A DNA stretch of 62,907 nt, filler included, from Bipalium vagum (lineage: Eukaryota): the NCBI GenBank assembly GCA_037834085.1. It is 3 parts of 3 records of this genome, joined end to end, with 100 filler letters (N's around TTAATTAATTAA, not from the genome) between each part and the next. Parts side by side here need not be neighbours in the genome. Positions count along the whole stretch, not along the records: positions 1 to 26,821 come from JBBMKC010126389.1; 2 more parts are not named here. The stretch is one strand, 5' to 3'. Position numbers and translations under genes: made by a program. Of the stretch, positions 106 to 47,443 are shown one piece after another; position 1 is the first letter of the stretch, and the number at the start of each line of letters is the position of its first letter. Below the pieces are notes generated by a model. It was not told where the DNA came from. It made no database searches and saw only the letters and a program-made list of their open reading frames with translations.

Positions 106-1242
106 TATTATCATTTTTGATAAGTTTAGTATACTCACAAAAATAGGTTATTAATATCGCAACCTTATTATTCATTCTTTATACATTTGGAATCATTGAG
201 TTGAGTCAAGACTATTCTTCATCTACTAGAATAATTCATAAATAACTTAAAATTTTTCGTTGCTGAAAGATAATTTCTGATGACTCAAAACATTCTATGG
301 GGTCAGTTTAAAGTTACGACAGCAGAAATGATCCGAAAAATTCATGCTAAGATAAGTGTTCTATACTGTCCAATATCCAACTGTTATCACATCCACCATA
401 TTATCCAAATATAAGTCAGTCTCACTTGCATTTTATCTCAGAATTTTAAAATAGCGTGCACATAGAAAATTCCAATTCACTTATGAAGTTATCCATGAAT
501 CAAATTCCTATTTTGAAAGTATGAATATATTGTAATACAAAGATGGAATTAAAACTAGAGAATAGTTAGATAAGGTATGAGAACCAATATAAAGATGTTT
601 TTAAAAATACGTTTTCGTAAAAAAATAATTTCTTATTTACCTTTTTAGAAATACTTCGTAACATCAAAGATATTTATTTTGACTGGAATTGGTCCATTAA
701 TAATCAATCACTAATGAGAATATAAACAGAAATCTAGTAAAAAGTACAGTGTATTGTAAGTTTCTGTTGAACTCTTAAGACAACTCAGATCTCTTTCTCT
801 CTGTCTATATATATTTCCTGTTTGGCTTTAATTGAGTTAATTCAATTCGTTATGGTTCTTTCTTACTCTTTAAAGATTTATTGTTTTGACTTTATAAAAT
901 AAAAACAATAGAAATGTTAAATAATAACTATGACCACTAACGGAAATCTAGATTTTCTACCGACTTTAACATTGTAAATATTTAAAGTTACAATGCGAAC
1001 TGAAAATAAAACCTCAGCGTTAATTAAATTCAGTCTTGTACAAAATTATAAAGTCTTTTTCTAATCCACGTTAATAATTAGTTTATTAATTAATTTATTC
1101 ATTTATTAATAAATAAATTGGTGAAAAATTTTGGTTCATAAAATCAATAATCAAGAGTTTTTTTAATATTTATAAAAGTAATTTTTAATCAATCCACTGA
1201 AAAAAGTTTGAATTTACTCTGTAAATATTAATATTGTCTAAC

Positions 1243-1567
1243 CTCCATAATTCGGTTGTCTACCACTGATCTGCTTAGAAAAGTTTCTGACAAATATATC
1301 ATACCCAAGATTAATGTTGTTGACAAAAATAATTGGTGTATCGTCTTTATACAAAGTAATTATAGGACCATACTTCGGAATATACTTTTTAATCATTTTT
1401 TTGTATATTAAATTTTCATTCAAGATAAAATCAGCTTCTTCGGAATTTTTATTAGGACCAGGAGGCAAATTATGACTTTTTAATGTCACTTTGACATTTT
1501 TCATCTTTTCTTCTTTTATTTTTTTTGCCCGTTCAATCATATCTTTTGCGGATATATTTTCATTCAT
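1243..1567 (-). CDS. Cytochrome P450, first coding exon (remaining exons not identified in the window)
   Basis: Has the LPPGP hinge followed by KYGPIITLY...PIIFVNN...YDIFVR...SGR, the standard CYP N-terminal beta1/alphaB pattern. The ORF ends at a probable donor GGAG|GTTAG. No heme-binding exon was found. Confidence 0.75.
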
Positions 1568-4500
1568 AATATTAAGTAAAAACTTTTCAATAATATTGTA
1601 ATAATTGTAATATCAAATTGTTATAATTTACAGCTGAAAAATGTTCATGTAATTGATATATTTAAAGAAAATAAATTTGTCTAAAAATTTATAATTAAAT
1701 TTTGTAAGTTCAAAAATATTTTATGAAAACATATCGCCTTGTCTTATTAAAAAATATATAATATATAAAATATTATAAATTATCTATGCATTTACTTCCT
1801 ACAACTATCCATACTTTCAGCATAAATGATATATCTCGTTATAGGTTATAACACCCTCTCTTTTCCTTCATCTTTCGGTTGGCATAATACTAGATCACCA
1901 TATGCAACGAGACTGTTCTATCTCTCCTGGGACATATAACTCCATTTTTCTTAATCATAGGTTGTTTTCAGGTTATTTAAATTTGGCTTTAAAATATTAC
2001 ATTTTAGAATTTAATTAACCCAATAAAAAAATTAATCAATTATCTTCAATGTTCAAACAATTAACTGAATATAAAATCTTTTTGAGAAGTGAGATTTATT
2101 CTGACTGCTACTGAGCTTACTTTACCATCCAAGATTCGTTACTGCTTTGGAGGATATCAAACTTTTTATTGAAATATTTCCTCCAAAGACAGCATTATCG
2201 ATTATTATGTGCCGATGTCATATCTTTGTCTAAAACAAAATTATACACTGTAACTTTACTTATAATACTACTGTCACTCTTAAATTGTAATATATCACAA
2301 TATACAATGTATTTGTAATCTCAAATCTGTTATCATACCTCCAATCTTAAGATTAACTATAAAATTCTTAATCATGATCTTACTGTTGTTCCTACTTCTG
2401 ATATCAATTGAAATAGTTCCTTTGAAGGCCTTTCCAAATATAATAAAGGGAGAAGGTAGAACTAAATTTATCTAATGAATTTAGAAACAAATATCCTATA
2501 TCATTCAGTCTTACCCTAATTCTCTAGACTTTTCCATTATCAAAAAAGTACCAAGGTTCCGTTTCTATTTTTATTGAGTATTCTTTTCACATAAATATTA
2601 TTTAAATTTTAAAAAGTTTTACCTGAGTAATGGTCGTCAACTAACATTTATATAAAAAGGTATTAGAATTCTATACCCTAATATTAAACAGCATTTTGTT
2701 TCTTTCTTCATTTTGATCACGATAATTTTGTGTTAGTAGTCCACATACTTTATATAATAGCAAATTACATTATTTAATGATTTCGGAAACACTGATAGTG
2801 ATATCGTGCGAGAAGATTATCTAATTTAATTGTTGAGTTTTGCGTGTAGTGGTGTTGAAATTGGGAGAGCGGCAGGCAGTCCAGCAGTTAAACGAATCCA
2901 TTTGGGACTGTGAGACGTGTTTGTGTGTCCTGTGTGTCGGTTTGTGTTTAGCGACTAATTAGAAGATGGATCATTTCATTGGATATTTGTTGGAAAATCA
3001 AAATTAGGTCTGTGTCTGTTTGTGAGTATCTGTGTTCAATATTGTTTGACTTGGTCGATAATAATAGGTTGATAATAATAGGATAATAATATTCAGTTTC
3101 ACTAAAAAGATTAAAAGATTTGAAAATGATTATTAATATTTAAATTGGGTTAAGAATATCGATGATGGAACTATCGACTTTCTAGGAACTTAACATAAAC
3201 TTTATGTAAATTCAGAAGAATTTAGTGCATGTACGTTCGAAAATCTGAGTGATAATAAAAATATTGATTACAAACGTTGAACTTTTTAAACGATAAACTT
3301 TTAAACGATCAACTTTTAATTGATCAACTGAGTTAAAAAAATACTTTATAAAATATATTTGAATAAATCTGACAACTTCATTTTTTAATACAATTTTACT
3401 TTGGGGTTAAAACCCGAGATAAAGAGTTAAGAGAAAAGTCAGATCACCCTTCGATATCTTACTCTCAAGGGCCCTCAGTTAAAAATTCGGTTCTCCGTCC
3501 TACTAGACGTGAAGAACACAAAAAAAGAAAATACTGGGAAGTAAGAAAAAAGATAACAATTATTTGAGCCTAAATAATTTACTAAATGTTATTCTCCTTG
3601 AAGCTGGATTCTGAGACGTATGGTTACTTTCTTCTGGCTTATTCTGAATAGTGTTCGCCGATTTCCGAATATTGTAGGGTTGCGAATATCGTAGAGTTTT
3701 GAATATAGCTTATCCTTAGTTTGTTGACTTCCTCTGGAATGCGTCGGGTTTTCTTCTCTTCGGAGTAGATAATTTTACTTCTTGTTTGTGTTTATTTTTG
3801 TGCTGCCTTTTGATACAGAAACACTTCAGTATTTATATTATTTTATTTTTTGTATTTTTAATTATAGTAACTTTATGTTACTATTTTTACAATTCACTTT
3901 AAAATTTTACTATAAATTTATTTATAGTAGCATTTATTAAAATTTTTATTGAAAAAATTATTTATAGTAACTTTATGTTACTAAACAATTTTTTCCAATT
4001 ATTTTATAAATTAATCATCAAAATGATTATTTTTTAATTAATTATAATTATAATAATAATTTTTATATTTTATATTTTATTTTATATTTTAAACAGATAG
4101 GAAGGAAAATTAATTAAACTCAGGGTTTTAACTTTACATAAAAATAAAAATTATATTTACATAAAATTATATTTGTAAACGACACAAAAACACAAATATA
4201 TAAAAGAACAAAAAACACTAAAACACTAGAATGTTTTTAAGATCACTAAATGGTTTTTATTGGTTTTTCGAGAATTTGGAATTGAATTTTGGACCGGTTC
4301 TGGGAGTCTCCACAACAATAATAAAAATTATAACAAATGGAGAAATGGTAAATTATAATTACCACATAAAAAATTAATATTTATATTTCATTTGAATATT
4401 TTATAGGCTTGATTAGGAAACCCAATCCATTTAATTATTCAGCTCGGCCGAACATGTTTTGGCCAAACTACTTAAGACTCTCGGCTTGTCATTATCTTAT

Positions 4501-6195: not shown

Positions 6196-9100
6196 TCATT
6201 CCAATTTTTTTCTACACATTTGACAGAAAGGATTTCCGTTATTTGGATTTTGAAAATTACACCCCCTAATATAAATTTAAATCAATTAGAGGATGTACAA
6301 AGAACTTCAGAAAACATACTTGCAATGCAATGGCTTCACATTGTTCATAAAAGGAACACGAGGCATGTGACCACCAAAACGCAAAGAATTCGGATTCATA
6401 AAAGATGCTGCCTGTATAAATATTAATCGGAAAATCAGAATAAAATATTCATCACGTTATTCGGTGGATTATTTTGAAGTGACATCACCAAACTGGCTGC
6501 CATATTTCTAATGAAATTAGCTTGGTTATCCATTTTAGATCGGATATTGTTTGGTCCTCCTTTTGTTTCATTCCGTACTGGTTGACCTGGCATGCGAGCT
6601 GAGCTAACTGGAGGTAGACTGTAAATGTTTTGACCAAATTTCCCATTGGCATTCATCTTTCGTTGTTTGTTCGATGTTCCATCGAATTTATTTGATCCTT
6701 TATTATTTGCATTAGCCTGCTTATTGGCTTGTTTAATTGAACTTAAAAATATATTAAAGTAATATTATTATCAATCCTCAAATATTATTAAAATGGCTAA
6801 ATCAATTAGTGTGTAAGTGTATCAGATTTTGCTCCTATGATTTTTTAACTAACAATTTTTGATAATTCAAGTTGTATGGACATTGTAAGAATTATTATTA
6901 ATTGAAATTTTCCTAATATTTTTTTACTTTACCTGAAAAAAAAGTAATACCACGAGACCTTTATAATAAGCTATGGTGAACTAATATATAATTATTGATG
7001 TGGAAAGCATAATACAAGAAATAAACTTCCCAGGTTGGTTTTAAAGCTCTTTTAAAAATAATCATTAGAATTTGATTATTATAATATTGATTAATTAAAA
7101 TTTCATTAATTTAAACACTTCTTAATTCTTATTTAAATTTAACCTATATTCTTCTTTCAATATTTATTGGGATCAATATATATCATTTGTTAAAAATATT
7201 TTTTTGAATTGTAATTATATGGTTACCTTATTGACTTTATAAACTTTAATTAGAATTGTTTTTGAGCCATTTTATATGATAAAATCAAAGTTAATTTGAA
7301 ATATTTTACGGCTTTTTATAAAATGAACTAAACTTTTTTATTTATTTAACTGGAACTCGTGAAAAATATTAATTAATATTTGCAAACAACCGATATTTTG
7401 GTTAACAGAGGAAATTCTGTTAGTCTTTCAAACAATTTGGAATGAGTAAAATTTACCTATTTAATTTATCAGGTCCCGCTACCTTGGTGGTATCTGTTTG
7501 AAGATTATCAACAACTGTCTCATCTTTCGTTTCTGAAATTTATACAATGATATTATCTATTAAAAGATGAAAGAAAATTGAGTTGAAATAAAAATAAAAG
7601 ACAGAAAAATGTGGAGTATTTAATTTGATTTTTAAATATATTTATTACTTCGACATTTATTTCCCAAAAAATATTAATTGATAATTAACATCATGAAGCA
7701 CATTTATTTAAACAACTTGACAAAATAATAATTCATTATTCTTTATATAAAAATGATTTGAATCTCAAAAAGATCGTAAAATTCCCTTTATGAAAGATTT
7801 TTAAAAAGTTATGTTAAAAAACCATTATTTTTACAAAAAATAGGTCAACCAATTTTGAAGTTAGTTTAAATAAAAAACAGCAACGAAAGTTCTTTAAAAA
7901 TTAATTTTAAAAAAGACCATTATTTATATTTTAGCTTTGATAAACATAGATGAAATTGATTAATTTAATAAAACTATTAACAAACTAAAACTATATAGAA
8001 AGAATTTTTTATTAATATAATAAAATGCAGAGATAAATGCCAAAAGAAATTTACTAGATATAAGAAATTTAATAATGGTGCTATTGAATTGATTTTAAAT
8101 TAATTTAGAGCGAAATATAATTCAGTAATTTTTTATATTTAAAATAGTTATTAATTAATTAATTTGCAGAATTCATTCTTAAATATCACTTTTTTTTGTT
8201 TTAAGACTGCTAATAATATGTGCAAAAGAAGAAAATCAGATGAATTGAAAAATTGAAATAATAATTGATTTAATTAATTTTTAACTTTAAAAAAATTAAA
8301 ATTATAATTGATGGCAATAAGATTATTTTCAAATGGAAAATCAAAATTTCTTAATTTTACTAATTAAATCGAAGTAATCATTTTCAAAACTGATAATAAA
8401 TATCTAGAGATATTATTTTAAAGGCAAAGGCCCAGTTTAATAATATGAAATTTATTTATTCAATTTTTCAGTTTTTAAAAAATTAAAATTATAAGGAAAC
8501 CAATAAAATTATTTTAAATGGAGAATCAAAATTCTTAGAATTGGTTCATTCTCCAGAAGCATTACCTTCTAATTTTCTTTTAGTACCACTTTTTTCTTTA
8601 TCATTCGATTCAGTGTTAGACAACACTGAGCTAGCGATCTTGATATTATCATCTGGACTTATATTTTCAATTTTTTCTTGACTATTTATATCTTTATGAG
8701 ATTCAAAAATGTCAGGGGTAGATGAAACATTTGTTATTGTGTTTAAACTGATTTCGATGAATTTGTATCCACGAGAAAAGAGACTAGAAGATATTATATC
8801 TACACTATCAACTGCGTAGTCCATTATGTTGCCTTCATTAATTCCTCCACTAGCTTTGATTAAAATTGAAGAATTGGTCATTTTTACCTGTTTTGATATG
8901 CACCTGATATCCTAAATAGAATGGATAATTTCGCTTAATAATTAAGGATCATCCACTAATTATCAAATTAATGAAATTGACCAAGAATCTATAACTACAT
9001 TGTTGGAACAGATAATACTAAATAAATACCATAACTTAATTATCATTAAAATAATTATCAAATTACTTTAACAAAATTAATAAAATATTGATTAAAAATA

Positions 9101-11387
9101 ACTGTTAATTTACGATAAATAAAGGATTAAAAATATCCCTTTTCATTACATCTGCTTTATTGATAAAAAATGGTAATTTTAAATATTAACTATTCAGCAT
9201 TTAAAATTTTGATCAATTAAATTAATTTAAATCAAAATAAAACAACGTGAAATTTTATGTAATCATAATGAATTTATAAAATAGATAAATACGTTAAAAC
9301 ATCAATTTTTCAAGAAATATAACTTCGCTTCAAAAAATAACTTCATAAATTTTAATCACTGAAGATAATTGAGAATTAATACTTTGAATCAATTATAAAA
9401 TCGATTAATACAAAATTATTTTAATAAAGTACTTGGAAAGGTTTTTAAAAAATCAATATAATCTGAAAAAATATCAGTTTCATAAAGAATAACTTAAGAC
9501 TTAATCACCCATTCAATGGTTGATGATTAGTTGGTAATGTACAAGATACATTAAGCAAAGTAAATTTTGATTTAAATATTTTAAAAATAGATGTTTACAA
9601 TAAAGCATTTTATTAAGAATGCCAATGATAATATCAATAATTAAAAATGAATATAATCTAAAAAATAACTAGCCAATAGAAATTAGATAACATTATCTCA
9701 CTGGGTGAGTCATCGTGTTAATCATAAATATCAATTTTCCCAAAATAAGAATAATTTCGGAAGACTTCGTTTTGTTTTCGTACCAAAAATTAATAAGTTT
9801 AAATTTGATTTATTACTTTTATGTCCCACCTGACTGAATTTTTTAGAACTAATAAATTTAATAAAAGTAACGAGATGAAATATACTTTGTTAATCACAGC
9901 TTTTTAATAATCATACAATTAAATAATAATCTAAATTAAAAATTTTAAATTATTTTTTTTAATTAATTATATTATGCTTGTAACAATCAATAATTGAATA
10001 TCTAATACGTAAATTCGTAATTAAAGAAAAATGTTAATTTATCATTGAGGTTTTATTTTACAATTAATTATTACTAATTATTTTCACGAGCATCATAAAA
10101 AGAAGTTCGATAACATAATTTACTCAATTATTATTTTGTTTAGAATTTAAATGTAATACTTAATTAAACTCATATTTTTATTAGATGTAAAATAATCTCA
10201 GCAATATAATTCAATTTAGAAATTTTAATATTTGTCGTTTTATCCAAATCTTAATAATATATTGATTAATTATGAATTAAGACTTCACAGTTAACTTATT
10301 ATAGCCCCCCCCCCCTTTTTATATTAGCTCAATGATAATTTAATTTTTTGTGTTTATAAATAAAAGTAAACATTAAAAAGTTATTTATAACAGCTAACAT
10401 TTCCTCACTGAATTATAGATGGATCGGTAATCAATTAATCAACTGATCTATCAGTAATTTAACAATGTTCTTAATTTTATTACTTTTATTGATTTCTAAT
10501 ACCGTTCTTTAGCTCATTATTTATTTAAATTGTCTTCTGAATGCTTTGGATATAATTTTGTAGGTTTCAATGAAACTACATAAAATTGATTTTATATAAA
10601 AATAAAATTACGTTAATCATACATTATATATATATATTCAAAAATATCTTACGTTTATATTAAGATTTTTCAATGTAATTAAATCAGCCCCGGATCGGGC
10701 AGCCTCTAAAGCATCATTTAAATTTTCACAAACAACTTCAATTTTAGTTAATTTCGTTCCTCTAGATTTCAACAACTTCAAACTATTCTCAATGCTGCAA
10801 TTAGCATTAATACAGTTATCCTTCGTAACGGTTAAAATGGACTGATCATGTTTATAAATTTGCATTCCTCCAACGTACATAGCATATTCTTCAACAATTT
10901 TAAATCCCGGAGTCATATCATCAGCTCCTATTATTTCACCGTTCCATTTTTGCTTTAATTTCGTTAAAGTCGAATTAACAGTTGTTGCTACACTAATTGC
11001 ACGAGTCATTATATTCATAACTATTTTTTCCGCCATTAGAATCTTTTTTGTTACACCCGTTATGATACCGACTGTTGAAAAACTATTTACAACAGATCCT
11101 TCGGAACACAACCATTTGATTTTACAATCAAAGAATCGTAAAATTTCATCAACAAATGGTAAACCCGCTAAAATACCTGAAAATTGAAAATCATTACTTA
11201 TAAATATAAAATCAATAATTTAGTAATTACCTGTTTCTTTAATATCAAGATTTAAATTGATAGTTTCATCATTATTTAGGATGGCTGAGAAATCAAAGTT
11301 TGGCAAACTTTCATTTATCCAAAATTTGACATATTTTTTTAGGAGAACAGGATTAATTACATCAGAAAATTTTGTAATAGAAGCCAT
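6196..11387 (-). CDS. QPRT: Quinolinate phosphoribosyltransferase (QPRT/NadC)-like protein, probably catalytically inactive, with a C-terminal C4 zinc ribbon; 7 exons, 516 aa
   Basis: Exons 11387-11231, 11176-10653, 8911-8566, 7532-7457, 6741-6456, 6411-6320 and 6265-6196; all introns GT-AG, phases consistent, total 1551 nt. QPRT-like motifs: GILAGLPFVD, WLCSEG, MTPGFKIVEEY, KDN, KIEVVCENL.DALEAARSGAD, KASGGI, VDIIS. Ends HCKGCNFQNPNNGNPFCQMCRKKLE*. Confidence 0.88.
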
Positions 11388-13246: not shown

Positions 13247-15655
13247 GTTTGGTTTGTGATTTGAGGAACAGTTGTCGAACGACCGACGGTAAATTTTTGA
13301 GATTATTGTAAAAATTGGAATATTGAGATTTTTGAATTTTCTGGCCGACGTGACTTGAATCGGATATTGTGTGAATTTTTGGTGATTATTGAAAGACCTG
13401 TGTGGCAAAAATTGGAGTATTTTTTTTGGAGGTTTTGAACTTTGTGCAAAGGCCAATGAGAATTGAGTTGTCAATTTTGGATTCGAATAATTTTGTGATT
13501 TATGATTATATTTTAATTAAACTTTAAGCAATTTATGATTGACCTAAATTTGACTAAGTTTTCGAACTTGAGGGTGGTCTTAAATTCGAAGAATGTTATG
13601 ATTTTTGATTTTTGTTATATTGATAAAACATGAGTAATTTGGATTTTTGTAAGTCCTGTGTGTGCAGAAAATTTTTTTTGTTTTTTTTGGATTTGATAAG
13701 GTTTTGGAAATTTTTTGTAAAGCCCGGCGAGGTATAAAAGTTCGTTTAAAAATTTTTAAGTTATTTATCTTTTTTTTTGAGATTTCATTTGGTTTTAGAA
13801 CTTTTTGTAAAGCCCTGTTAAGTATTAAAGTTCGTTTAAAAACAATTTTCTTGATTTGATTGGACCTGTGTGGTATTGACAAATTGTTTGGGATTTGAGC
13901 TTTGGACATTTGTAAAGTTCGTTTTTGAAAAGTGTGGCGAGTTTAGGAGGAAGGAAATCGAAATTAGAACAACAGAAGAAAGTAGAAAGTGGTTTGCGAA
14001 AGAGAACAACTAGAGGCTCAACGGGATTAGCTAATAGTCAATTGGAAGAAGAAAATTCGGAAAGTAGAAGCTCAGATTCGAGTCAAGGACAAGGATCGAA
14101 TCAACAAACGATTCATGGATGCCCATGATGTTAATAATGGTCATGATGTTTTTGAATATGATGAACAGATCGAATGCATTGGTAGCATACGATTGTACGA
14201 AGACAAAAATGGGAAAAATATATTCGTTGATAGATTTGGAAAAATGCCCAGAAGATTACCTGACAAATTTAACCAGCAGAGACGTATATTAACATATTTA
14301 TCAGGAAACGGAATTTAGAAAGGCGAACGTGAAGGAATATATCGTTAAGAAGGCAAAGTTTGAGTATTTTTTTTGGAGTCCATAGTATAACGGCTTTTTT
14401 GGAAGTAACATTGATACCAGTTCCAGTGATTGACAATTCCAAAAACTGCAAGTCAGCCTTAGTAACAGGGAAGTTACAGATCGCAGCAGGGCTAGCAATT
14501 GATGCAAAAGTCGGTGTAAGAACTCGACAAGCCATAACAGAAGGAGGAAACATAGAACCAGATGGCGCATGCACAGGCAGAGACAAATATAGAATATGCG
14601 ATAAAGTAGCCTAGGTGGTCACTTATTCGAAGAGTGATTTGTGGCTCCGGTTACCAGAATTTTATTAGAAAAAGATGCAAAACCGAAAATTCTAGAGTGT
14701 TGGTCAGCTATGTCGCCCATAAACAAAATAACACAAGATGTGTGGATAACTCTACCAGATAGAAAAGAGACGATTAAGGTAAAGAACCTGGAGTTGTTAA
14801 AGACTGAAAGGGGGTTGAAGTTTGAAGATTTGGATGAATTGGCATCCAGAGGAACCAATGGCACCAAAAGATACACATCGTTAACAGGATTTCGGGAATT
14901 AGATTCCAGAATTAGAATTAGATTCCTATATGTATGACGAGATACCAGGTGAAGAGACTGGTTTTTTAGAGGAAAAATTACCCGAACAAGAGTTGGATGA
15001 ATGGGAAGTAGTCAGATTAAAAAATGCTCGCGTGAATATGCTGAGAATAAATGATCAAAGGAAGCACAGGACCGATGATAAAAGCGTGGTAAAAGTGAAG
15101 ATCAATGGCCAAGTGTTATCAGCATTAATAGATTCAGAAGCAACAGTATCGATAATTAACAAATTTTTAACAGAGGGAGAAAGGAATAAGATACAATCAG
15201 CACCAGGAGCTCAAGCAGTAACAGGCCAGAATTTTGAGTTTGTGGGAAAAGTATTATGTGCAGTGGAACTAGGTGGTCACAGAATAGAGCATGGTCTGAA
15301 GGTAATGGTCAACTGTCTATATGATGGATTGATCGGAATGGACATTTTATTGCAGTTTCAAGGCGTAGGGTTTGATTTAGTTACAGGCAATTTGATACCA
15401 GTTCAAGGTAGTAGAGGCAGAAGATGAGCCGTGAATGACATAATATTAAATGAAAATGTATTATTAACATCAAGAGCAGAAACAGTTTGTTTCGTGACAG
15501 CGGGAATTCAAGGTAAAGAGGCAATGCACTTCAAGCCCAGCATTGAATTGAGATGGTTACATGGAGCAGTAGATGAAGTAGTACTAATCAGAGATGGAAA
15601 GATACCCATAAGGGTTGTGAACTTTGACGTTAAGAAGAAGCAGTTGTAATCAAAC

Positions 15656-16513
15656 ATGAGAATTGGCCAGTTACAACCATTAACGGATGAGCCATATGCA
15701 GATGCGATCAACGTTTTGAAGCCCAGTTCAATAAAAAGGTATAAACCAATAGTGATTACATGTCAGAATTTGACAGAATGCCAAAGAGAATGCATACAGA
15801 GAGTAATAGCAAGGTATGATAGAGTATTTGCTAAAAATGATTACGATTTGGGTTGTACTCACATTCTAAAATATAAAACTATTCTTACGGAGTCAACCTC
15901 AATCAAGCAAAGAGCATATCGTCAACCTAATGCGTTGGAAGACGAAATTGATCAACAGATAAAGGATATGTTGGAAATAGGGACGATTGAACCGAGTTCG
16001 TCACCTTGCGCATCACCTGTCGTAATGGTTAAAAAGAAAGATGGCTTGATAAGAATGTGTATTGATTACAGAAAAGTAAATGAAGTTACGAGAAAGGATA
16101 CATATCCAATTCCAGTGATTGAGATGATGTTCGACAAGATCAAGAGGTCGACAATATTCACAGTGATGGATCTTCAGAAGGGTTATAATCAAGTTGCTAT
16201 GGATAAAGACAGCAAAGAGATCACGGCGTTCGTAACGAGCAAGGGATTGTATCAGTACAACAAGATACCGTTTGGATTGACAGGATCTCCAGAAACGTTT
16301 CAGAGATTGATGAATCTGATATTAATGGATGTTGAACATGCTATGGTCTATGTGTATGATATTATAATATTTTCTATCAATGGTGATGAACATATTAAGG
16401 ACATAGCAGCAGTGCTGCAAAGATTGAAAGTAGCAGGTCTGAAGGTAAAGCCTATCAGGATATTACAGAAGATTTATCAGAATTTATGTCAAGATAGCGA
16501 CACAGTTGAGTGA
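15656..16513 (+). pseudogene. Gypsy reverse transcriptase fragment
   Basis: RT motifs are present, but catalytic YxDD reads YVYD and the frame breaks after LKVKP. Confidence 0.9.
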
Positions 16514-18793
16514 TTTACTGAAAGGAGAAAGTAAAGCGCTGAAGAGAAAAGCCAAACGAGAAAAGAGAGTAAATATAATCGAAAAAAAAGTAGATAAAAT
16601 CGTATGCGGAGAAGAGCAACAAAAGGCTTTTGAACAATTAAAGGAGAGGTTAATTCGACAACCAGTATTGAGATACCCAGATATGACAAAGTCATTTCTA
16701 CTAATGACGGACGCTAGTGGATACGCGGTTAGAGCAGTATTAGCCCAACAGGTAGAGGGAGAAAAAGACCACGTAATAGCGTACGCTAGTAGAGGACTGA
16801 AAAGCTCGAGCTGAATTATGCGACGATAGTGTTTTTGGTGAAGAAGTTCAAGCAATCTTGTGGGGACGTAACACTATTTTATTCACTGATCAAAGCCCAT
16901 TACAGTGGTTACTAAAGTATAGAGATACCGCTAGTAAATTGATCTGATGGGCATTAATACTACAAGAGTATGATATCGAAATAGGAAGGGGAAAGCCAAT
17001 GCCACAGTACCACACTTTATCGAGAATGAGGCAAGAGGAATTATCACAAGAGGATGCGTAGCTCACTGACGAAGATAAAACCGTCAGTGGTCAGAAGAGT
17101 AAATTTGATTGATTCACGAAAAGACTATCAGAAAGCTGATGACGAAATTGAGTTAATCAAGTGATGCATGAAAGGAAATGTTCCGGAAGATTGGGTAAAG
17201 AAATGGGAAAAGTTAAAAGATAAATTTTAAATGAAGAAGGGAGTATTATATTTTATCAGAAGTAAATATCAGTGCTACGTGGTACCGTTGATGATGCAGT
17301 ACCATGATGGAACACTTGGATGTCACCTGTCAGCTAGGAAAACATTGTCAAGAATTACGAGCAAATATTTTTGGCCAAAAATGGAACACGACATTAGAAA
17401 TTGGTGTCAGTCGTGTAAGATTTGTCAAACCCGGAGAGGAACAGGAGAAAGAACTAAAGTACCACAACTCCTGCAACACCAATGGAAATGGTGGCAATGA
17501 AAGTCGTGGGGCCGTTGCCAGAAACGATATTGGGAAACAATTTTATAATTGTTTTATGTGACTACTTTACTAAGTGGCCAGAAGCGTACCCAATGAAGGA
17601 TCAAAAAGCAACAACCATAGCTAAAATCTTTGTAGAAGAAATCAGTTTTCGGTACGGCACACCAAGGAAATTATTGACGGACAATTTTATGAGCGAGCTG
17701 ATCAAGAAGATATGTGTGCTATTTGCGATTTTGAAACTTAATACGTCACCGTATAGACAGCAGACTGATGGGTTAGTAGAGAGGTTCAATAGAACTCTAC
17801 TCAAAAAAAATAAAAAATATTTGTAATTGATGATTGTAGATCTCCTCCACTTTTTAAAAAAAACTTGGATATTTTTCATGAATTCCTTGAATATTTAAAA
17901 CTTTTTTAGCTCTTATGTTATATTTTTTAAACAGTTTTTAATCGTATTTTCCTGATTACTTATATTTTTTGAGATGTATTTTTCACAAAATTCAATATAC
18001 CATTTTGATCCATTTTCTAAGAAAATAAATTCATGGATTGATATAAAAAATAAATGATCTACTCTCCGTAGCTGTTATAAACGTCTTTTGACGATAAAAT
18101 GATGAAACTCATTAGAAATCTATCCTAGTTGATAACTAGATATTGAAAGAAACCTGAATTTCTCTAAAAACCACGATGCAAGATATCAAAATTTTTAAGT
18201 TCAGCTTAAAGAAATATAATTAATATAGAAGCTTCTTAGCTAGAATTTGAATCTTAATAACTTCATGGTAGAAATTTCGAGAGATATATCTTGATAAAAT
18301 AAGAAATAAATTATTCTGAAAAAATGTTAGATACATGAATTTCATAGCATAATTATCTCGCCCAGATTCGAAAATAGAAGTATCAGGAAGTTGTTAAAAA
18401 ATACCGGTTTCCATAAAATTTATACGATTAACAACAGCTGTGATATCAAAGAAATCAAAAGATCGAATGAAATATGAGGATAAATCAAACAATATCCAAT
18501 AAATGTTTTTTATCAGAAGACATACTTCGACTTCTTGAAGATCTAACAAGAAATATTAATCAATAGAACTACTTTTCTTTTTTTTATTATTGAGTGACAA
18601 AAACTACTGAATTTTAATTGCATATTTGGAATGACAGATGGTCGATAAATATAATCAACAGAAAATATATCAAATTTTATAATTGATTTTCAGTAAAAAG
18701 ATACAGAATTTCCGGATACAGAATCACATACCAAAAAATGTTAATATCTCTGATGATTTTAATGCAAATCTAACAAACTTTGTTTTAAATATA

Positions 18794-19890
18794 CACAACT
18801 GGAAAAAAAAGAGGCTCACACAAAATATACATTTTTACAAAAATGTTTAAATTGGTTAACATTTATTACATTTTTATGTAATATTTAAGGTATTGCACTT
18901 AATATGTATGTAATTTGGTGTTTTTGTTCTGTTTGTTTTAATAATTCAAGTAATAAATAAAATGACTAAGACACATTTAAATGTCGAAATAAAAAATCGG
19001 ACATAATGCCTTTGTTACACAAAACTGTCATATCCTGAAATGTAGAATATTTTGAAGAAACATGGTATTCAAATTCCATTATCCACAATACAAAGAATTG
19101 GCTACCAGTTCAACACAACAGGTTCTGTAAAAAGAAAATCAGGCTCAGGCAGATCCAGAAAAACTACAAGTCGAGATATCAATAGACTGAAATTTGATGT
19201 CATTAAAGATCGTAAGAAAATTATTAAAAAATTAGCTGAGGAATTCAAAAATGGAAATAATGAAACAGTTTCTCAAAAAATTGCAAGACGAGTCAAAAAA
19301 TTGGGGTTTGTATCTATGCGTTGTGCAAGGAAACTATTTTATTCAAATAAGAATATTAAAAACAGATTACATTTTTATAATCTTTACGCTATGTATGATT
19401 CTCAGTGGTTCCAATGTGTGTTCTGGAGTGATGAATGTCGATTTGAACTTCATAGTGATGCCCCTGAACGCTGTATTCAAAGATCAACTAAAAAATATGT
19501 AATGGAATTTATTTCCACCTAAAAAAAATGGCGCTGGGGGAATTATGGTTTGGGGAATATTCTCAGCATCTGGAGTTGATGAGCTTATACGATGTATTGG
19601 GTCAATTAATGCCAAAGAGTTCCAAAGGATATTAGATATTGAATTGCTTCCAAGCTTCGAGAAATTATGCATGGAAAATGAAAGACAATGTTATTTTCCA
19701 AAAGGACAATGCACCGGCGCACACAGCAAAAAAAACAAAAGCATGGTTGAAGAAAAGAGGTGTACCGGTTATGTTTTGGCCTGAACAATTGCCAGATCTT
19801 AATCCCATTGAGAATTTATGGGCAAACATAAAGGCAAAACTAGCCGGGAAATTTTTCAATACTTCTGACCAACTGTGGAAAGCAGTCGAG
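18794..19890 (+). mobile_element. Tc1-like (DD34E) transposon, degenerate, right end missing
   Basis: TA|CACAACTGG left end. HTH with SGRSRKTT; VFWSDECRF; MVWGIFS; FQKDNAPAH followed 34 aa later by E in PDLNPIENLW. Stops and frameshifts present. Confidence 0.92.
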
Positions 19891-20586
19891 ATATTTTTTT
19901 CTGGTGAAACAACTTTTCACATTTCCGTATTTGTGAATAAGCATAATTGCCGATGATAGGCATCAAGTAATCCTTCACAACCGTCGAATTTGTTTAAATT
20001 CCAGCCTAAGTTAATACATGTTTTGCAATGTCTTGCACTCAAATCATTGAACCATTCTTTTTTGAAGATAAAACAATCAATGGACAAAATTGTCTACAAA
20101 TCCAATCATCCAACGAAAAAGACTTACTAATATGATCATCTTGCAACAATATGGAGCTCCGGCACATTTTTGCAAAAATGTTCGCGTATGGTTAAATGAA
20201 AAATTGAAAGGACGGTGGATTCGCAAAGGTGATCCAATATCTTGGGCATTACGTTCTCAAGATCTGACTCCACTGGAATTTTTTCTATGGGTTACATTAA
20301 GAAAAGCATTTACAAAACAAAGGTCCATGGCATTGTCGATCTAAAGAACATGATTTAGCAAGATACAAAGTCCATAAAAAAGAAATTACAAACAGTTTTT
20401 GATGGTATTGTAAAAAGAATTAAGATTTTGTATTGATGTTAATATTGACACTTTAAAGCAGTATATGTAACTTTTTATATGAAAAAAAACTTTGGAATGT
20501 GATTTTTTAAAAAGTTTATTTAATTAGGTAAAAAAAATAAAATGCATATTAACTTTATTTTTAGATATGAATTACCGGACACCCTA
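19891..20586 (+). mobile_element. 3' part of a DD41D (rosa/Visitor-type) Tc1/mariner transposon
   Basis: FFSGETTFHISVFVNKHNCR (cf. FSDEATFHLSGxVNKHNCR); LQQYGAPAH...WALRSQDLTPLEFFLW with 41-residue spacing; ends ...ccggacaccct(a)|ta, like a CAGGGTG-type TIR. Confidence 0.85.
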
Positions 20587-20795: not shown

Positions 20796-21529
20796 TCAAT
20801 CGTAATAGTCGTCGTCATTCTCATTATTTACAACTTTATAATTACAGTGTGAATTGTTAACGGCATCGAGCTGACTTTTTTCCACTGAAATCTGTTGGAG
20901 ATCAACGTCATTGGCTGTGGCTTCCAATTCAAATTGTGCTCGTGCCTGAAAAGTTGTTTTAAAGCTTTTTAGGGAGAGTTTCAAAAATACTTGTTCAAAC
21001 ATTTTCTGTTGCAACTCAACCATTATTTGATAATCCTCTTCTGTCTGATGTTGAAATTTAAAACGCGATGTTTGAGCTTTGCGCAATTTGACTTCTTCCC
21101 TTGCCTCTTCACTGGCACTTTTCGCTATTTCTTTGTAATGATTGAGGCCCATCATTTCCAGACCTTTATTACATAAACAAAGTTGTGAAAATAATATTTT
21201 TTCAATTTTATTTCATAGTTCTAATTAATCAAGTTATTTTATATAATATTTTTCTTATGCTTAATAAAATATAGAATATCTGATATAAATATAAAGAAAC
21301 CTGTGAGTATATGTTCAGCCATTATAGTCTTCTTACTTGCTTGATTACAAGCTAAATTAGCTTGACCAGCAAGTTTGTGTATAAATTCATGACTTATTTG
21401 AAGCATTAATTCTCGAGCTTCCAAAGTCAAACGAGCTTCTGGTGCTGCATCTTTAATTAGTTTGTTTAGAGCTGCTCTAGGTAAGCTTACATCCTCCTCT
21501 TCTTTGGCAATCAAATCGGCTGGGTCCAT
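20796..21529 (-). CDS. DR1: Negative cofactor 2 beta subunit (Dr1 / TBP-associated phosphoprotein), about 183 aa
   Basis: Exons 21529-21301, 21163-20991 and 20945-20796. Histone fold EEDVSLPRAALNKLIKD...EARELM...EFIH...ACNQASKKTIMAEHILTGLEMMG, followed by LQQKMFEQAR and an acidic tail, as in Dr1. Confidence 0.93.
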
Positions 21530-22679
21530 CCTAAATATTTTCACTATGAATTGTAATATCAATTTAAAATTTTAAAATATTTAATTAAATTTATTTATAT
21601 AAATGATTTACAAATAATTCAAAAGATACCCAAAATTAATTATTTAAACAAAATCAAAATATTATAAAAAATACTTATAATTAAAACTCAATTTGAGCAG
21701 TCACAAAAATATATATATATATATATTTTTTATATATATTAATTATTAACAAAATTTATGATTATAAAATTAATAAATGCTATATACTGAATCCTATCAT
21801 TTTTAATTGAATATTAACTGAAATATTTGTATCATATAAATTAATTCATAATTATTATTCTTTTAAACCGATTATATTTGTATAAAATTTGTTGTTGCTA
21901 GGAGTATAATGAAAAGAAATATATACAAATATAAATTTTTTAATAACTAAAGAAAACTGAATTATAATAATAATACTGAGTAATTGTAAAATGTAGGGAC
22001 ACAAATTTGATTCTTTATATTTTTTAAGCTTTGAACTAATAACTACAACTAGGTTGATAGATGGAGAGATCAAGGTTTTGAAGCTTATCTTTCGATCAAG
22101 TTTTTATTCTGAAATTAGTATGTTCAAGGTAATACACTTGTGTGCGTCAGATTGTAGTTTTGATTACCGTTGTTTGGTTTGCATAACAACCTTTCAGTAA
22201 TAAATATGTTAAATAAGTATAACTTGAATTAAAGTTAATCTTTATACTCGAAAATGGATCTAACCCGTTACTCGCGGATGGTGTAATAACCAGTTGGAGA
22301 ACACAGTAAGTCAATAAAAATAATGATGGACATACAGCACACAAAATTAAAACTTTTTAAATTAATGTTCAGATATTCAAAATGTAAAATCAGTAACGGT
22401 ATATACTTGGAAAATCAATTCCTTTAAAGTTAAATATGATTAATAATATTTATGATTGCTTTGAACCAAATGACATCAATTAAAATGGTCCTGATTTACC
22501 CAGTAACATAAATATTTGAATAATTTTTTTATTTATTAAAATTTAATCCTTACAACAATAATAAGTTATTAATCAGTAAATATACAAAAAATATTTCACA
22601 AATTATTTAAAAGGAAATAAATCAGAAACTTGATTCCAAAAATTATGAAAAAATTTTGAACGATTTCGGAAATATTCTA

Positions 22680-25456: not shown

Positions 25457-25830
25457 ATGACAAATAATAAATTTTTAAACAAATTTAAAATTGGAAGATA
25501 TCCAGGTGAATTACATTTAAAATCTTTAAATCCTTTAAATAAAACAAATCCAGTTCACAATTTTACTGGACCTGAAACAAATGTTGACAAACGTTTAAAA
25601 AACTATAATGAAATAGTAGAAACTTTTGAAGATAATCAAGATTTATCAATTCTCCAAATTCCAAAATTTGATTCCATTCCAATAAATTGAATAGATCAAG
25701 TAACAATGAAACATGATGTAAAATATATGTCAACAGATTTAAAAGATAGACATGTTGCAGATGTAGAAATGATTCATGAAATGAATAATATTCAAAATCC
25801 TACACCAAGAAAAAAAACTTGAAAGAGCAA
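25457..25830 (+). pseudogene. Viral-type phospholipase A2 (PLA2X-like) pseudogene
   Basis: Ca-loop-like FTGP and catalytic HDxxY are in the same frame, separated by a TGA at 25688-25690. Confidence 0.75.
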
Positions 25831-25844
25831 TTGTAAAATTAATA

Positions 25845-26165
25845 ATGAAAGGAAAGGTCGCCTTCGGCTTAGGAGGATTATATCCTCCAATAGCTTTAGG
25901 ATTAGGTTTACCAAGAAAGTCAAAGATTCTCTCTAATGAAAAACTTTTCGAAAATTCAAAAATTCTTCCTCATGAAAAAAATAAACAATTAGCAAATGAA
26001 CTTCATAAAGAATTTAGAAAAACTAAAGATTTCCTAAAAGTTAAAGTTAATAATAAAGATTATATTTGGTCTGCAGATCTTACATTTGTTCCTGGAGAAA
26101 AAGATTATAAAATAATTCTAATAGTTATTGATTTATATACTCGTTTTGCTTTCGCTGTTCCTTAA
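25845..26165 (+). pseudogene. Polinton-type integrase N-terminal fragment
   Basis: LANELHK...WSADL (first catalytic Asp)...IVIDLYTRFAFAVP, then truncated. Confidence 0.85.
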
Positions 26166-26199
26166 AAAAATCAAAGGTTTCGAGTTGATTTAAGATACA

Positions 26200-26572
26200 T
26201 TACATACAAATATATTACTAGAATACATTAGGTAAATATGGAATTAACACAACATCAAATTTTGATTTAATTGATATTGCTGAAAATTTAGAAATGCTCT
26301 TAAAAGTTTTAATGAAAGATGAAGTAACTGAAAAAAGAAGACTCGAAGCTAATGAAGCCAAAAGCCCCATAAAATCTGAAGTTCCATTAATTATTAATTA
26401 TCAAAATACAAATCAAAACGCAATTCATTGGGTTGGATACTACAATTTTTTTTACTTGGATTCCTATGGTTTACCACCACTTGAAGAATTACAAAAACAT
26501 GTTAAAAAATATAATAAATTTGATTTTCAATCTGAAATAGATTTAGAGTACTGTGGACAATTATCTTTTTAA
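26200..26572 (+). pseudogene. Adenain-like cysteine protease (Polinton maturation protease)
   Basis: His in IHWV, Asp in YLDSYG, and Gln/Cys in FQSEIDLEYCG occur in adenain order. Confidence 0.8.
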
Positions 26573-26920: not shown

Positions 26921-27983
26921 NAAGAGAAAAGTGCAGACAGATTAAGCGCTAATGAATGGATAAAGACGGAGTGGCCAAAAATTACTGCTGAATATTCATT
27001 CCAAGATATATATAACGCAGATGAAACTGGAATGTATTTTCGTGCAATTCCAGAACATACTTATCTATTTAAAGGCGAAAATGACAAAGGATTCAAATGC
27101 TCTAATGTGTCATATTTGAAAAATGGCTACTAAAATGAGACCTCTTATTAAAGAGAAAGATTGTCTTGTTAATAGATAACTGCACTGTTCATAAAAATAG
27201 TTTATCATTAAGAAATATTAAGATAATCTTCTTACCATCTAATAATACGGCGTTAATTCAGCCATGCGATGAAGGCATAATTCGCACATTAAAGGCTAAC
27301 TATCGCAGACATATTTGTACACAAATTATTGTTGAACTTCATAAAAATGCAAATTCTGATGCAAATGCCACAGCAAAAAGATTTCTCTTTTGGATGCTTT
27401 ACATTTTTTGAGCATGTCTTGGAAAGAAATATCCCAGAAGACAATTAAAAATTACTTTCGAAACGTGAGTTTAAAAATATTTATTTGGAACCATATTCAA
27501 TCGAAGAACTTGATTCTATAACTATCCTTCCCGATTGTATGTCAAAAGAGGAATTTCCAAATTGGTTAGACATAGACAGCTCAATTGACGTAGCAGCTAC
27601 AATGACAATTTCTGAAATGTCAACGTCCTGGTGACAATTTTCAATTATCCAACGAAATAGAATTGAACCAAAATTCGGAGGACTTTTCAGAAGTTCCTCC
27701 TACCAGTAGTGAGATCCAGAAAGCGCTTCAGATTCTTCGCCGCGGTGTCCAATATAGGGCAAAGAATTTTGATTTTCATTATGATTATGAAAATTATATC
27801 CAGGATTTATTAAATCGAGACAAACGGCAAACTACGCTTGACGAATTTTTTGAAATAAATATTTAATCTAGTTTTTTTTATTATTTTTTGTTTTGTAATA
27901 AAAAAGTCGCATAATGTTATCAATCGGATATTGTTAACAAAAATGAATGGTCCCAAAGCGATCACATTAAGCGGCGACTACTG
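26921..27983 (+). mobile_element. pogo/Tigger transposon, 3' part, degenerate
   Basis: IYNADETGMYFR and LLIDNCTVH...IIFLPSNNTALIQPCDEGIIRTLKANYRR (DDE_1); right TIR ...atcacattaagcggcgactactg|ta. Confidence 0.92.
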
Positions 27984-28187: not shown

Positions 28188-31100
28188 ATGTTTCATTTGA
28201 TACTTATTATGATATCAGTAACCACTGTTCATTGCAACCACAAGAACCAAAACGAAATAAGTCAGTAATTAATCAATATATTTAATTAAAAAATAAGTTC
28301 ATTTTGTAATTTATTTAATTATTTTTTCTAAATAGATACAACAGTTGCAATATCAGAAACTATTGCACTGTCTTGTCCGATACCAAAAAATGAAAATGAT
28401 ACCGTTATTTTTTGGCTTTTCGACAATGAAACAATTTCAGCTCCCACGGCCTCAAAAAGTAAGGATATATTTTCCCATATCCGACCAGGTGAAAATGGAT
28501 CATTGATCATCACAAATGTCACACAATCCGATGCCAAAATATATGTTTGTATCCAGAACGAGACCCTTATCGTAAATGAAGGTTACATTCGGATAATTGT
28601 TAAAGGTAACGATGATCCATTGAATACCGTATAAAGATTTCTGTTTTTTCTCACATGTAGAAAATGAAATTATTAATTTCGCAGTAGAATCGGCGTCAGA
28701 TTCAACTCTCACTTTCTCTTGGAACATAAAAAAATCAAAATCCACTCCAGTTTCCAGCTTTAATTTGACACTTTGCAAAAAGTAATCGATTTTTAAAATT
28801 TATCTATATTTTATTGATTTTCATCCCATCAATTTTGAGTATCTAATCTATTTTCCTCTTGCATACATGCACTTTGAGAATTTCGATTTTTATAAAATTT
28901 TACTTCCATAATCAATAATTGATATCGTAAACTTTTAGAGGTCATTGCCATGGAAATGAGTTTATTTTCCTTTGGAAAATCTGAAATTTTTTTGTATCTT
29001 GGTTCCTATTCATATTAATTTTGATCAATGTGATTAATTTTCATATCTGAGATGTGAATGAGTCTCAGAATCGATTATTGTCTTTGAAACCAATCTGATC
29101 CAATAATTGCTTTCAGTGAACGATTTTTTAATTCAATCACTTGGTGTCAGTGGTAACCAGGTTCATTGGGCTTTGCCATCTCCCTTTAAACAGAACCTCT
29201 TTCCTATCCCGTCACATTCATATCATTATTCCATGTTTTGCAATAATAAAAATTTATATTTTCTGTTGATTGATTTTTGTTTTTATTGATTTTCGATATA
29301 AATAATTACTTCTTCATGTTTCTTATATTTATTAACAAAATCTGTTGGTAAAATATAAAAATCAATAAATTTTTTATAAATATATTGATTATTAAAAAAT
29401 CGATAAATATATAAAATAGATGAATAAAGTAGGTAAATTCTGCTTTAATATGTATGATGTATTCTATATTTGATTAAAAAATCTGCTGATAATATTTTAA
29501 AAATTAATATTCGATTGAGAGAAAAGTTTTTCGTATTCATAAAACATGGAAATCGAATGCTATATTTTATTAAATGTTAATGGTTTATAATTATTACATA
29601 ATCATTACATTGTTAAAATACATTAAAATAAAAGATATTTTGTAAAGTAAGAATATTTGGTAAAAAATTGGACGTTTTTATATATTGTTAGTTTTATTGA
29701 TAATATAAAAAAAATTATCGTTTAAAATTTTATTAAAATAAGCACAAAAATGTTGAAAGAAAAGATTGTCATTTATTTAGATCTCTACAGAACTGACTTA
29801 ACGGTTAGTTCTATGCTTGAATGTAAAGAATGATTGGTACCATTTTACGAAAAAATACCCAATCGATTTAAAACATAGTTTAAATCAATATATTTATTCT
29901 ATTTTTTCTATTCAATTTCAATGTCTTTATAAAATACAAAAAAAACTTTTTCGTTACGTGATAAAAGAATAATCAATTTTAAAAGCAGACAATTAAAATT
30001 TTATTTTGTGAAAATATAATCCTCGTTTTTATCGTGTTCCGGAAAAAATACCTTTTCTTGATTGTCAGATTTTTGGTCGATATCGGTTATTATTGATTAT
30101 CCATCATTGATTAAGTAAATATAGAATGAATTAAACAAAAAATACTAAACCGTTAACAGGTGATTTTTCTCCAATTTTAGAGGAAGTTTGGAAGACTGCA
30201 CCACCGTACCGTTACGTGATTTATTGAGCAGTTATACATTTTACAATTTACCTTCCTTTACGAAATATGAAGCATCAATAAATGGCATTGATATTTCTGG
30301 ATTCGACAAGGTCTCTATTATTCAAACGAGTACACTACCTGGTTCTCCGATTTCCCGTCCATTTGTTTCTGAAATTGTTTCTTCTAACAGAAGTGTTTTA
30401 TTGGAAATTGATTGTGTCGAATGCAAAGATGATAAAAAGATGCAAGGAACTTTGAAGTGGTACTTTATATCATGTACCCATAAGCCAAATGTAATAAACG
30501 AGACTGTAAAAATTTTCAACACTTCGATGGTCAAGGTGGTTTATATTTTTACTTTCTGCTTTATTTTTAAAAACTTTGCTTAATTTAATTTATTATTATT
30601 AATATTGTATTATTTATCTAATCTACTTATCATTTTTTTTAAAATTATCTCGCTATTTCTATATATTGTAAAAATTTTTCAATTTATATTATTATTATTC
30701 ATATCATTTTTATTTATATTTTACTGTTATTTTTATTATATTTTTTATTATTAGACTAAGTTTAGAATATTATTGATTTTAACAAATTTATCGTAGACGC
30801 AAATATACAATCTGAATCCATATACCAACTACTCCTGCTTCATTTATGCTTCCAATGGCATCAAACACGGACCCAGCTACAAATTTTTTTTTAAAACTCT
30901 CCAAGATTTTCCCAGAACTCCATTATTTTTCACTGGTATACCAAATGTTTCCGGCACAGTCACACTAATATGGAGGCCGGGCTCCGATAGTAACGGTCCC
31001 CTTACCGGTTATTTGTTAAAGGTGTGATTTCGATTGGTGTAAATCGATAAGACCATGTAATTGTATTGATTAATCAAGGTTTGCGATGCTAAGCAGCACA

Positions 31101-47170: not shown

Positions 47171-47443
47171 TTGAACTTTTATCATGATATCGTTCACGAT
47201 TTAAGAAATACAGCCGAAACCATTTTTCGTCAATATCCACATAATTGTCCCATGTATTATATCTTTAGTGCTGGAACCACTTCAATCTCTTATGAGATTT
47301 CAAATGCCACTGCTGACACCAGTTCTTCGTATTTTTCAATACAAGGTCTTCCAGAGGCTTGTTTTCTTGCAAATGAATCACGTTCAAAAATTGTCTGGCA
47401 ATTTGCTTACATAGTTAATATTTACATTAAAATTCTTGCATAA
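47171..47443 (+). CDS. Probable exon of an uncharacterised gene
   Basis: Less AT-rich open frame (YPHNCPMYYIFSAG...LPEACFLANES) with N-glycosylation sequons; a signal-peptide-like mini exon MSILNIIIFVISAF lies at 46809-46850. Splice phases not resolved. Confidence 0.4.
   Translation: MNFYHDIVHDLRNTAETIFRQYPHNCPMYYIFSAGTTSISYEISNATADTSSSYFSIQGLPEACFLANESRSKIVWQFAYIVNIYIKILA

Follow-up and report, generated by a model that had tools for sequence, protein, structure and literature searches.

Why would a flatworm keep an intact reading frame with the fold of QPRT when most of the residues that bind the substrates of that enzyme have been replaced? This question is raised by a minus-strand locus of Bipalium vagum, which we analyzed together with the whole 62,907-nucleotide (nt) stretch of DNA around it (the window), an AT-rich sequence with short introns and a GC content of mostly 0.2 to 0.3. 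The first-pass annotation had described an apparent pseudoenzyme at 10660 to 11040. That interval covers only part of the second exon, and the annotation had missed the exons that follow, together with the tail, the zinc finger, and a flatworm-wide family to which the protein is related. Most likely, the gene comprises seven exons encoding 516 amino acids (aa), in which a QPRT fold is followed by some 200 residues of low-complexity tail and, at the C terminus, by a four-cysteine (C4) zinc finger.

The splice model runs through 516 codons without a stop or frameshift, has six GT-AG introns, and places the finger at its end; all features lie on the minus strand. Exon 1 (11231 to 11387, with the ATG at 11387) encodes residues 1 to 52, the N-terminal lobe, which carries D26S and is 56% identical to residues 1 to 52 of P0018, a relative with an intact active site. 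A GT donor at 11230 opens intron 1 (11177 to 11230; 54 nt, GT-AG, phase 1). Another related protein, P0201, starts just before the intron 1/exon 2 boundary and looks like a read-through of exon 2 with the same boundary. Exon 2 (10653 to 11176) encodes residues 53 to 227 and bears R102K, R138D, K139D, K149E, H160Y, R161K, M169V, H174C, E201V, and D222K. Intron 2 (8912 to 10652; 1741 nt, GT-AG) follows residue 227 in phase 0. At this same residue, similarity is lost in P0018, P0201, and P0020, a pattern expected if these sequences read through into a shared intron. Exon 3 (8566 to 8911; residues 228 to 342) supplies the end of the barrel (with E246K and Q274R), a conserved SGG loop, an acidic linker, and a KRK basic patch. 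Its predicted donor (AG/GTAATG, at 8566/8565) lies 18 bases before the read-through stop at 8548 to 8546, with which an unspliced transcript would encode a 348-aa form.

Exons 4 to 7 are a splice prediction based on higher GC content, compatible phases, and GT-AG ends. Predicted exon 4 (7457 to 7532; 76 nt) begins at a TTTCAG acceptor, ends at an AG/GTAAAT donor, and encodes part of the tail; its phases (1 in and 2 out) bridge exons 3 and 5, and its GC content is 0.37, versus 0.18 to 0.21 in the flanking introns. Predicted exon 5 (6456 to 6741; GC content, 0.37) is an open frame encoding an N/Q/K/P-rich low-complexity tail; the model is least certain at the donor of this exon and at the 44-nt intron after it. 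Predicted exon 6 (6320 to 6411; GT-AG, donor AA/GTATGT, GC content of 0.41) has the first finger cysteine, C493 (6324 to 6322), at its end, and predicted exon 7 (6196 to 6265) completes the finger, C-x2-C-x3-N-x7-C-x2-C, with C496, C508, and C511 and the stop codon.

The remainder of the window contains a Dr1/NC2-beta-like histone-fold gene of at least two exons (20796 to 21571, minus strand) and a multiexon receptor-type tyrosine phosphatase gene (about 28300 to 41460, plus strand) whose product has an Ig domain, pieces of the phosphatase domain, and an extended C terminus rich in serine. A decayed Ty3/gypsy-like pol (14600 to 17900, plus strand; GC content of about 0.37) shows frameshifts and, by eye, protease, reverse transcriptase, RNase H, and integrase pieces. 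Other transposon relics lie at 25785 to 26572, 27139 to 27518, and 19046 to 20344 on the plus strand and at 59314 to 60716 and 61779 to 62051 on the minus strand; they include an rve integrase next to a piece resembling a protease (by eye, Polinton-like), a pogo DDE_1 relic, and fragments of Tc1/mariner elements. A weak Pfam match to the PH1 domain of herpesvirus glycoprotein B (60079 to 60345, minus strand; 89-residue frame; E = 0.00085, below the cutoff) is surrounded by mariner remnants and may be due to chance. A frame at 1238 to 1612 (minus strand) resembles the start of a cytochrome P450, with a PPGP motif by eye and no Pfam match, and the caspase-like appearance of 45639 to 47440 was rejected since it had no Pfam match either.

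The relationship of the locus to QPRT is clear. In a PDB sequence search, the exon at 11176 to 10653 aligned with residues 52 to 224 of pig/human QPRT with a single gap (E = 5.8e-29); pig QPRT was the best of 18 matches at E values of ≤0.001 (query residues 1 to 172 against chain residues 52 to 224). Pfam scores were above the cutoffs for QRPTase_N (40.4 bits) and QRPTase_C (56.8 bits) in exon 2 and for QRPTase_C in exon 3 (31.9 bits). Direct reading of the minus-strand codons gave R102K (11027 to 11025), R138D (10922 to 10920), K139D (10919 to 10917), H160Y (10856 to 10854), R161K (10853 to 10851), H174C (10814 to 10812), E201V (10733 to 10731), and D222K (10670 to 10668). Thus, every substitution previously listed is real and lies within 10660 to 11040, although R102K and R161K are conservative replacements and not losses. 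The same annotation was right that the frame is intact, but two of the structural motifs that it named as preserved, GILAG and ASGGI, are positioned outside that interval. Changes absent from its list are D26S, T140M, K149E, M169V, E246K (exon 3, codon 8857 to 8855), Q274R, D280E, and K284N. Residues K171, D172, N173, E199, N223, S248, G249, G250, and S268 are unchanged.

Replacement was concentrated at the ligand contacts. We used the 13 side-chain contacts given in three structural reports, namely, R102, R138, R161, K139, and K171 (PMC5517448); H160, M169, E246, and S268 (PMC4726147); and E201, D222, N223, and Q274 (PMC3633916, which also gives the main-chain contacts G249, G250, and G270). 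Ten of the 13 are changed in the B. vagum protein, with only K171, N223, and S268 kept, compared with 19 of 68 other conserved positions, including G114S, G179C, and G193T (Fisher P = 0.0013). The comparison drew on 81 positions with conservation of at least 95% across 119 of the 121 relatives whose motifs are intact, and because these references were prefiltered for RK[TI]TPG and KDNH, those few positions are 100% conserved by construction. Within residues 1 to 227, at positions where P0018 carries the consensus residue, the contrast was similar (8 of 10 contacts versus 14 of 55 others; P = 0.0017). A cruder split into charged and uncharged positions (13 of 26 versus 39 of 55 kept) was not significant (P = 0.085).

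The consequences for catalysis were judged from what an active QPRT requires according to PMC5517448 and PMC3633916. The quinolinate pocket (R102, R138, K139, H160, R161, and K171) now reads K, D, D, Y, K, and K, and the ribose-binding acids E201 and D222 are V201 and K222, so that neither site keeps its full set of required residues. At the phosphate site, G249, G250, and N223 are kept and S270 is a common variant, whereas K139D and Q274R are changes. In purified human QPRT, activity is reported to be abolished in K139A, greatly lowered in K171A, and little changed in R138Q (bioRxiv 10.64898/2026.04.01.715697). The combination of K139D, E201V, and D222K makes QPRT activity very unlikely, and the B. 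vagum copy is likely a catalytically dead pseudoenzyme. Some residual binding is possible, since K171 and the SGG phosphate loop are retained and the human R138Q enzyme loses little activity.

Relatives with similarly degenerate sites were found among parasitic flatworms. A search of 1.84 billion representatives returned 1883 matches, of which P0018 was the best (51% identity over exon 2); the next reached 39%. Among the first 167 matches, we picked by eye 11 copies lacking several site residues and looked up 10. Parasitic flatworms accounted for six of these (Mesocestoides VDD74806, Dicrocoelium CAH8449879, Calicophoron CAL8092355, Schistosoma japonicum Q5DCL6, Hymenolepis VDL62689, and Protopolystoma VEL28024); the others were P0039, which groups with them, and three proteins from Blumeria. 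In the seven proteins of the parasite group, 7 to 12 of the 13 contacts are changed, and contact-specific loss was significant in only three of them. All seven share K149E with the B. vagum protein, whereas of 230 proteins whose RKxxPG motif is intact, 229 have K at this position, and 26 positions are common to the B. vagum protein and at least six of the seven. P0018 and P0201 are also tied to the parasite proteins by a [LI][RK]SKxG stretch and a YAM motif. Powdery mildews (Blumeria graminis/B. hordei) have no fewer than three QPRT-like proteins whose active site is degenerate (P0034, P0063, and P0081), two of them from contigs of identical length (12.3 Mb), and these look like a further, fungal loss of QPRT catalysis that arose independently. 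Separately, the fungal-type QPRT P0144 contains many T-to-M, P-to-L, and S-to-L-like changes and is nearly devoid of Pro and Thr, a pattern suggestive of C-to-T hypermutation.

Four of the seven parasite-group proteins, 429 to 577 aa in length, end in a C4 finger with a conserved N and an FC pair, a motif found in none of the remaining proteins of the 341 compared; the three without it are shorter and probably incomplete. By way of the predicted splice model, the B. vagum protein displays the same combination of a dead site, a low-complexity tail, and a C4 finger. Its extension abounds in N, S, K, and P. When the window was read in all six frames, C-x2-C-x3-N-x7-C-x2-C was found a single time, and against a hidden Markov model of the four parasite C termini, the open reading frame piece containing the finger was the best of 2695 (E = 0.0022; next, 0.51). 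No alignable similarity was detected between the exon 5 tail and the tail of P0196 (best E = 3.1). PDB and Pfam matches of the finger were weak (E = 0.01 to 0.2), with every Pfam match below its cutoff, and exon 7 alone had no PDB match. The RanBP2 signature, W-X-C-X(2,4)-C-X3-N-X6-C-X2-C (bioRxiv 10.1101/2025.06.19.660640), is not matched, because the B. vagum finger has no Trp and has X7, and the parasite fingers have X6 and no Trp. In place of the TF dipeptide that follows the second Cys in NZF fingers, B. vagum has NF (with M as in NPL4) and the parasites have GA, GT, GS, or GF. A K[KR]x[KR] pattern is present in four of the seven parasite tails and absent from the B. vagum basic patch.

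Database names do not reflect this degeneracy: UniRef names four of the six named parasite proteins as active enzymes, yet two full-length parasite proteins scored 141 and 148 bits, below the nadC cutoff of 198, which even the incomplete P0018 passed (241 bits). In Schistosoma mansoni, the de novo NAD enzymes are reported absent, and Trp or Asp does not rescue NAD (PMC7252647). Nonetheless, Smp_246230, labeled nicotinate-nucleotide pyrophosphorylase, is expressed and ranks among the top daily-cycling genes of male heads (PMC8638415). This protein would belong to the same family as the tailed QPRT-like proteins, by way of the S. japonicum protein. A family of dead QPRT-like proteins accounts for the presence of a "nicotinate-nucleotide pyrophosphorylase" in flukes and tapeworms despite the reported lack of the pathway in schistosomes. 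Neither natural QPRT pseudoenzymes nor the flatworm tail and finger turned up in searches of CC-licensed PMC and bioRxiv texts.

The history of the loss was inferred from two trees, one with 43 rows and one with 23 rows from which 18 active-site columns were removed. Both joined the B. vagum protein to the intact P0018 (with P0201) at 100/99. A clade uniting the B. vagum protein with the seven parasite proteins was rejected, albeit at a borderline level and with long branches involved (approximately unbiased [AU] test P = 0.0435; 18 active-site columns removed). The placement of the B. vagum/P0018 clade was unstable, falling with the parasites in the 43-row tree (95/83) and with arthropods in the 23-row tree (91/98). 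Because the trees join the B. vagum protein to intact relatives and not to the parasite proteins, they suggest that catalysis was lost twice. An ancestral flatworm QPRT would have gained the tail and, with it, a second job, after which the active site would have decayed in parasitic flatworms and again in the B. vagum lineage, possibly following gene duplication, as the trees and one diverged contig hint. The contig, from run X1 (record 1; 6453 nt), matches both ends of exon 3 (window positions 8541 to 8586 and 8881 to 8938) at about 87%, with 273 letters between them versus 294 in the window (21 bases fewer). Its depth is 38.6, about twice that of a perfectly matching neighboring contig (21.2), and it looks like a paralogue, a diverged second copy that would also reach the tail.

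A single loss, in a duplicate older than the split between parasitic and free-living flatworms and of which the B. vagum gene would be the orthologue, is a possibility that we take seriously but regard as unlikely. It accounts for the shared tail, finger, K149E, and loss of D26, and the lost noncontact positions overlap between B. vagum and the parasites (P = 0.006). However, the B. vagum protein shares 52% gap-free identity with the intact P0018 and only 27 to 29% with the parasite proteins, and the AU result weighs on the same side. K149 is also changed in two of the three unrelated Blumeria degenerate copies (K149E in one), so the change can arise convergently, and K149E may be a convergent mark of lost catalysis.

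What would a dead QPRT with such a tail do? We favor, with moderate confidence, a nonenzymatic multivalent adaptor in which the oligomeric core presents zinc-finger tails. The QPRT fold would still form its usual dimer or hexamer and display several tails at once, and the RanBP2/NZF-like fingers could then bind ubiquitin or RNA multivalently. The basic patch hints faintly at the nucleus as the probable site of action. More tentatively, and with somewhat less than even confidence, we propose an undescribed flatworm family of oligomeric dead QPRTs whose prion-like tails are tipped with RanBP2/NZF-like fingers. The tail would have come first and made the gene indispensable as a nuclear adaptor for RNA or ubiquitin, catalysis would then have been discarded twice, and the protein would have been kept and expressed in schistosomes, other flukes, and tapeworms without the de novo NAD pathway.

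Two other roles appear improbable, to about the same degree. The protein could be an inactive regulatory subunit that tunes NAD synthesis by joining an active paralogue in mixed dimers or hexamers. QPRT sites are built from two subunits, position 102 is still basic in the B. vagum protein, and run X1 holds the diverged second copy matched at the two ends of exon 3. In the window, no second QPRT copy was found, and in run X1 at 85% likeness no contig spanned exon 2, a hole that proves nothing. Regulation of an active partner would in any case not be a general role, since S. mansoni is reported to be without the de novo pathway, and six parasitic flatworms, including S. japonicum, keep the dead form. 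In the second role, the fold would have retained a moonlighting activity of its own, for example, the suppression of apoptosis by binding caspase-3, and the tail would be secondary. According to bioRxiv 10.64898/2026.04.01.715697, the binding of human QPRT to caspase-3 does not depend on catalysis and is no weaker with K139A, but this proposal leaves the conserved finger unexplained.

Slightly less probable still is a pocket repurposed for another reaction or for a new ligand that might be cationic. Neither R138D nor K139D could arise by fewer than two base changes, the pocket retains K171, N223, and the SGG loop, and the summed charge of the residues in the carboxylate pocket (six in number) drops from +5 to +1. 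The first-pass annotation had noted basic quinolinate-binding residues turned acidic and an acidic PRPP/Mg ligand turned basic and had suggested that the pocket may bind a cationic ligand. The two new acids are real; however, over the 13 contacts, a count of charged residues, which is no substitute for electrostatics, gives a formal charge that increases from +2 to +4, as R138D and K139D are outweighed by D222K, E246K, Q274R, and E201V. Charges are swapped between subpockets rather than reversed overall. The position of the new acids among the new bases K222, K246, and R274 suggests internal salt bridges filling an empty site. At these sites, the parasite homologues have scattered, unrelated residues and share no new pocket residues, and the proposed cationic-ligand pocket is not supported.

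That selection keeps the fold and not the chemistry, as first proposed, is supported by several observations. The B. vagum protein and P0018 are identical at 118 of 227 residues (52%) without a gap. We simulated neutral decay of the B. vagum codons by substitutions only (assumed GC content, 0.20; kappa, 2.5; 400 runs); 139, 37, 2, 0, and 0 runs remained free of stops at 95, 90, 80, 70, and 60% identity, respectively. Hydrophobic-core columns are still hydrophobic in 57 of 69 cases, and GC contents by codon position are 0.35, 0.33, and 0.25, versus 0.15 to 0.20 in introns 1 and 2. An AlphaFold model of exon 2 (pLDDT, 88.8; pTM, 0.76) was best matched by human QPRT (Foldseek E = 3.5e-15; root mean square deviation to QPRT, about 7 Å), which indicates compatibility with the fold and no more, because the 19-row input alignment consisted mostly of active enzymes. 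By the identity, simulation, hydrophobic-core, and GC results, the gene is constrained, though less tightly than one for an active enzyme. In word-indexed protein searches, exon 2 retrieved only ordinary NadC proteins at 25 to 31% (3 of 1374 and 14 of 148 candidates); these searches missed P0018, so that their lack of closer matches carries little weight. A metagenome scan found no relative with exon 2 and, with an alignment, 68 loci of ordinary QPRTs, none of which entered the comparisons. A decaying pseudogene or an assembly artifact would fit the long branch (1.46 versus 0.18 for P0018 in the 43-row tree), the changes at 19 of 68 noncontact conserved positions, and the failure to find a close orthologue, but it is scarcely credible given the intact, gap-free frame with its six introns, the 52% identity to an intact relative, the simulated stops, and a branch of 0.72 versus about 0.5 once active-site columns are removed.

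The multivalent adaptor remains our preferred reading. Naturally dead QPRTs show which surface selection keeps (the 26 shared positions), and their misannotation as enzymes in databases would mislead metabolic reconstructions. If two independent losses followed the gain of the tail, the family would be a clean case of an enzyme becoming a scaffold. If the adaptor reading is true for the family, the parasites carry a misannotated, parasite-specific protein with an architecture without counterpart in their hosts.

Compared with known systems, the B. vagum protein is a clear homologue of QPRT/NadC/BNA6 (EC 2.4.2.19; PF02749 plus PF01729; PDB 4i9a and 5ayy), with both Pfam domains. It shares with them the SGG loop, K171, D172, and N173 and differs at the 10 contacts described above. 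A closer alternative is not provided by ModD (TIGR01334), a prokaryotic family with the QPRT fold: exon 2 scored only 28.3 bits against its cutoff of 178.85, far below the 124 bits obtained with the nadC model. TIGR01334 is labeled a hypothetical equivalog in the profile library, and the function of ModD is uncertain. The B. vagum extension, predicted at 228 residues with a zinc finger, exceeds the tails of 3 to 39 residues in intact relatives with the end motif found (n = 57), a set that lies outside the close relatives P0018 and P0201, whose sequences stop at intron 2. Its finger weakly resembles RanBP2-type/NZF fingers (NPL4 and TRABID) and eL40/DZR ribbons in its C-x2-C-x3-N-x6/7-C-x2-C spacing and NPL4 in the F after the second Cys pair position and the M before the last Cys; unlike RanBP2/NZF fingers, it has no Trp, N for T (NF versus TF), and one extra residue (x7 versus x6).

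The nearest counterparts are the parasite QPRT-like proteins, which likewise have a degenerate site, K149E, a low-complexity tail, and, in four of seven cases, a C4 finger. They differ from the B. vagum protein in a core that is only 27 to 29% identical, in other replacement residues, and in a separate position in the trees. Moonlighting human QPRT, as reported, is a precedent for a catalysis-independent job of this fold, and its activity is abolished by loss of K139; unlike the B. vagum protein, it is a single active enzyme with no tail or finger and is not a natural pseudoenzyme. Pseudoenzymes as a kind and moonlighting by QPRT are already known, and the B. vagum protein adds a likely natural QPRT pseudoenzyme with a predicted tail and finger.
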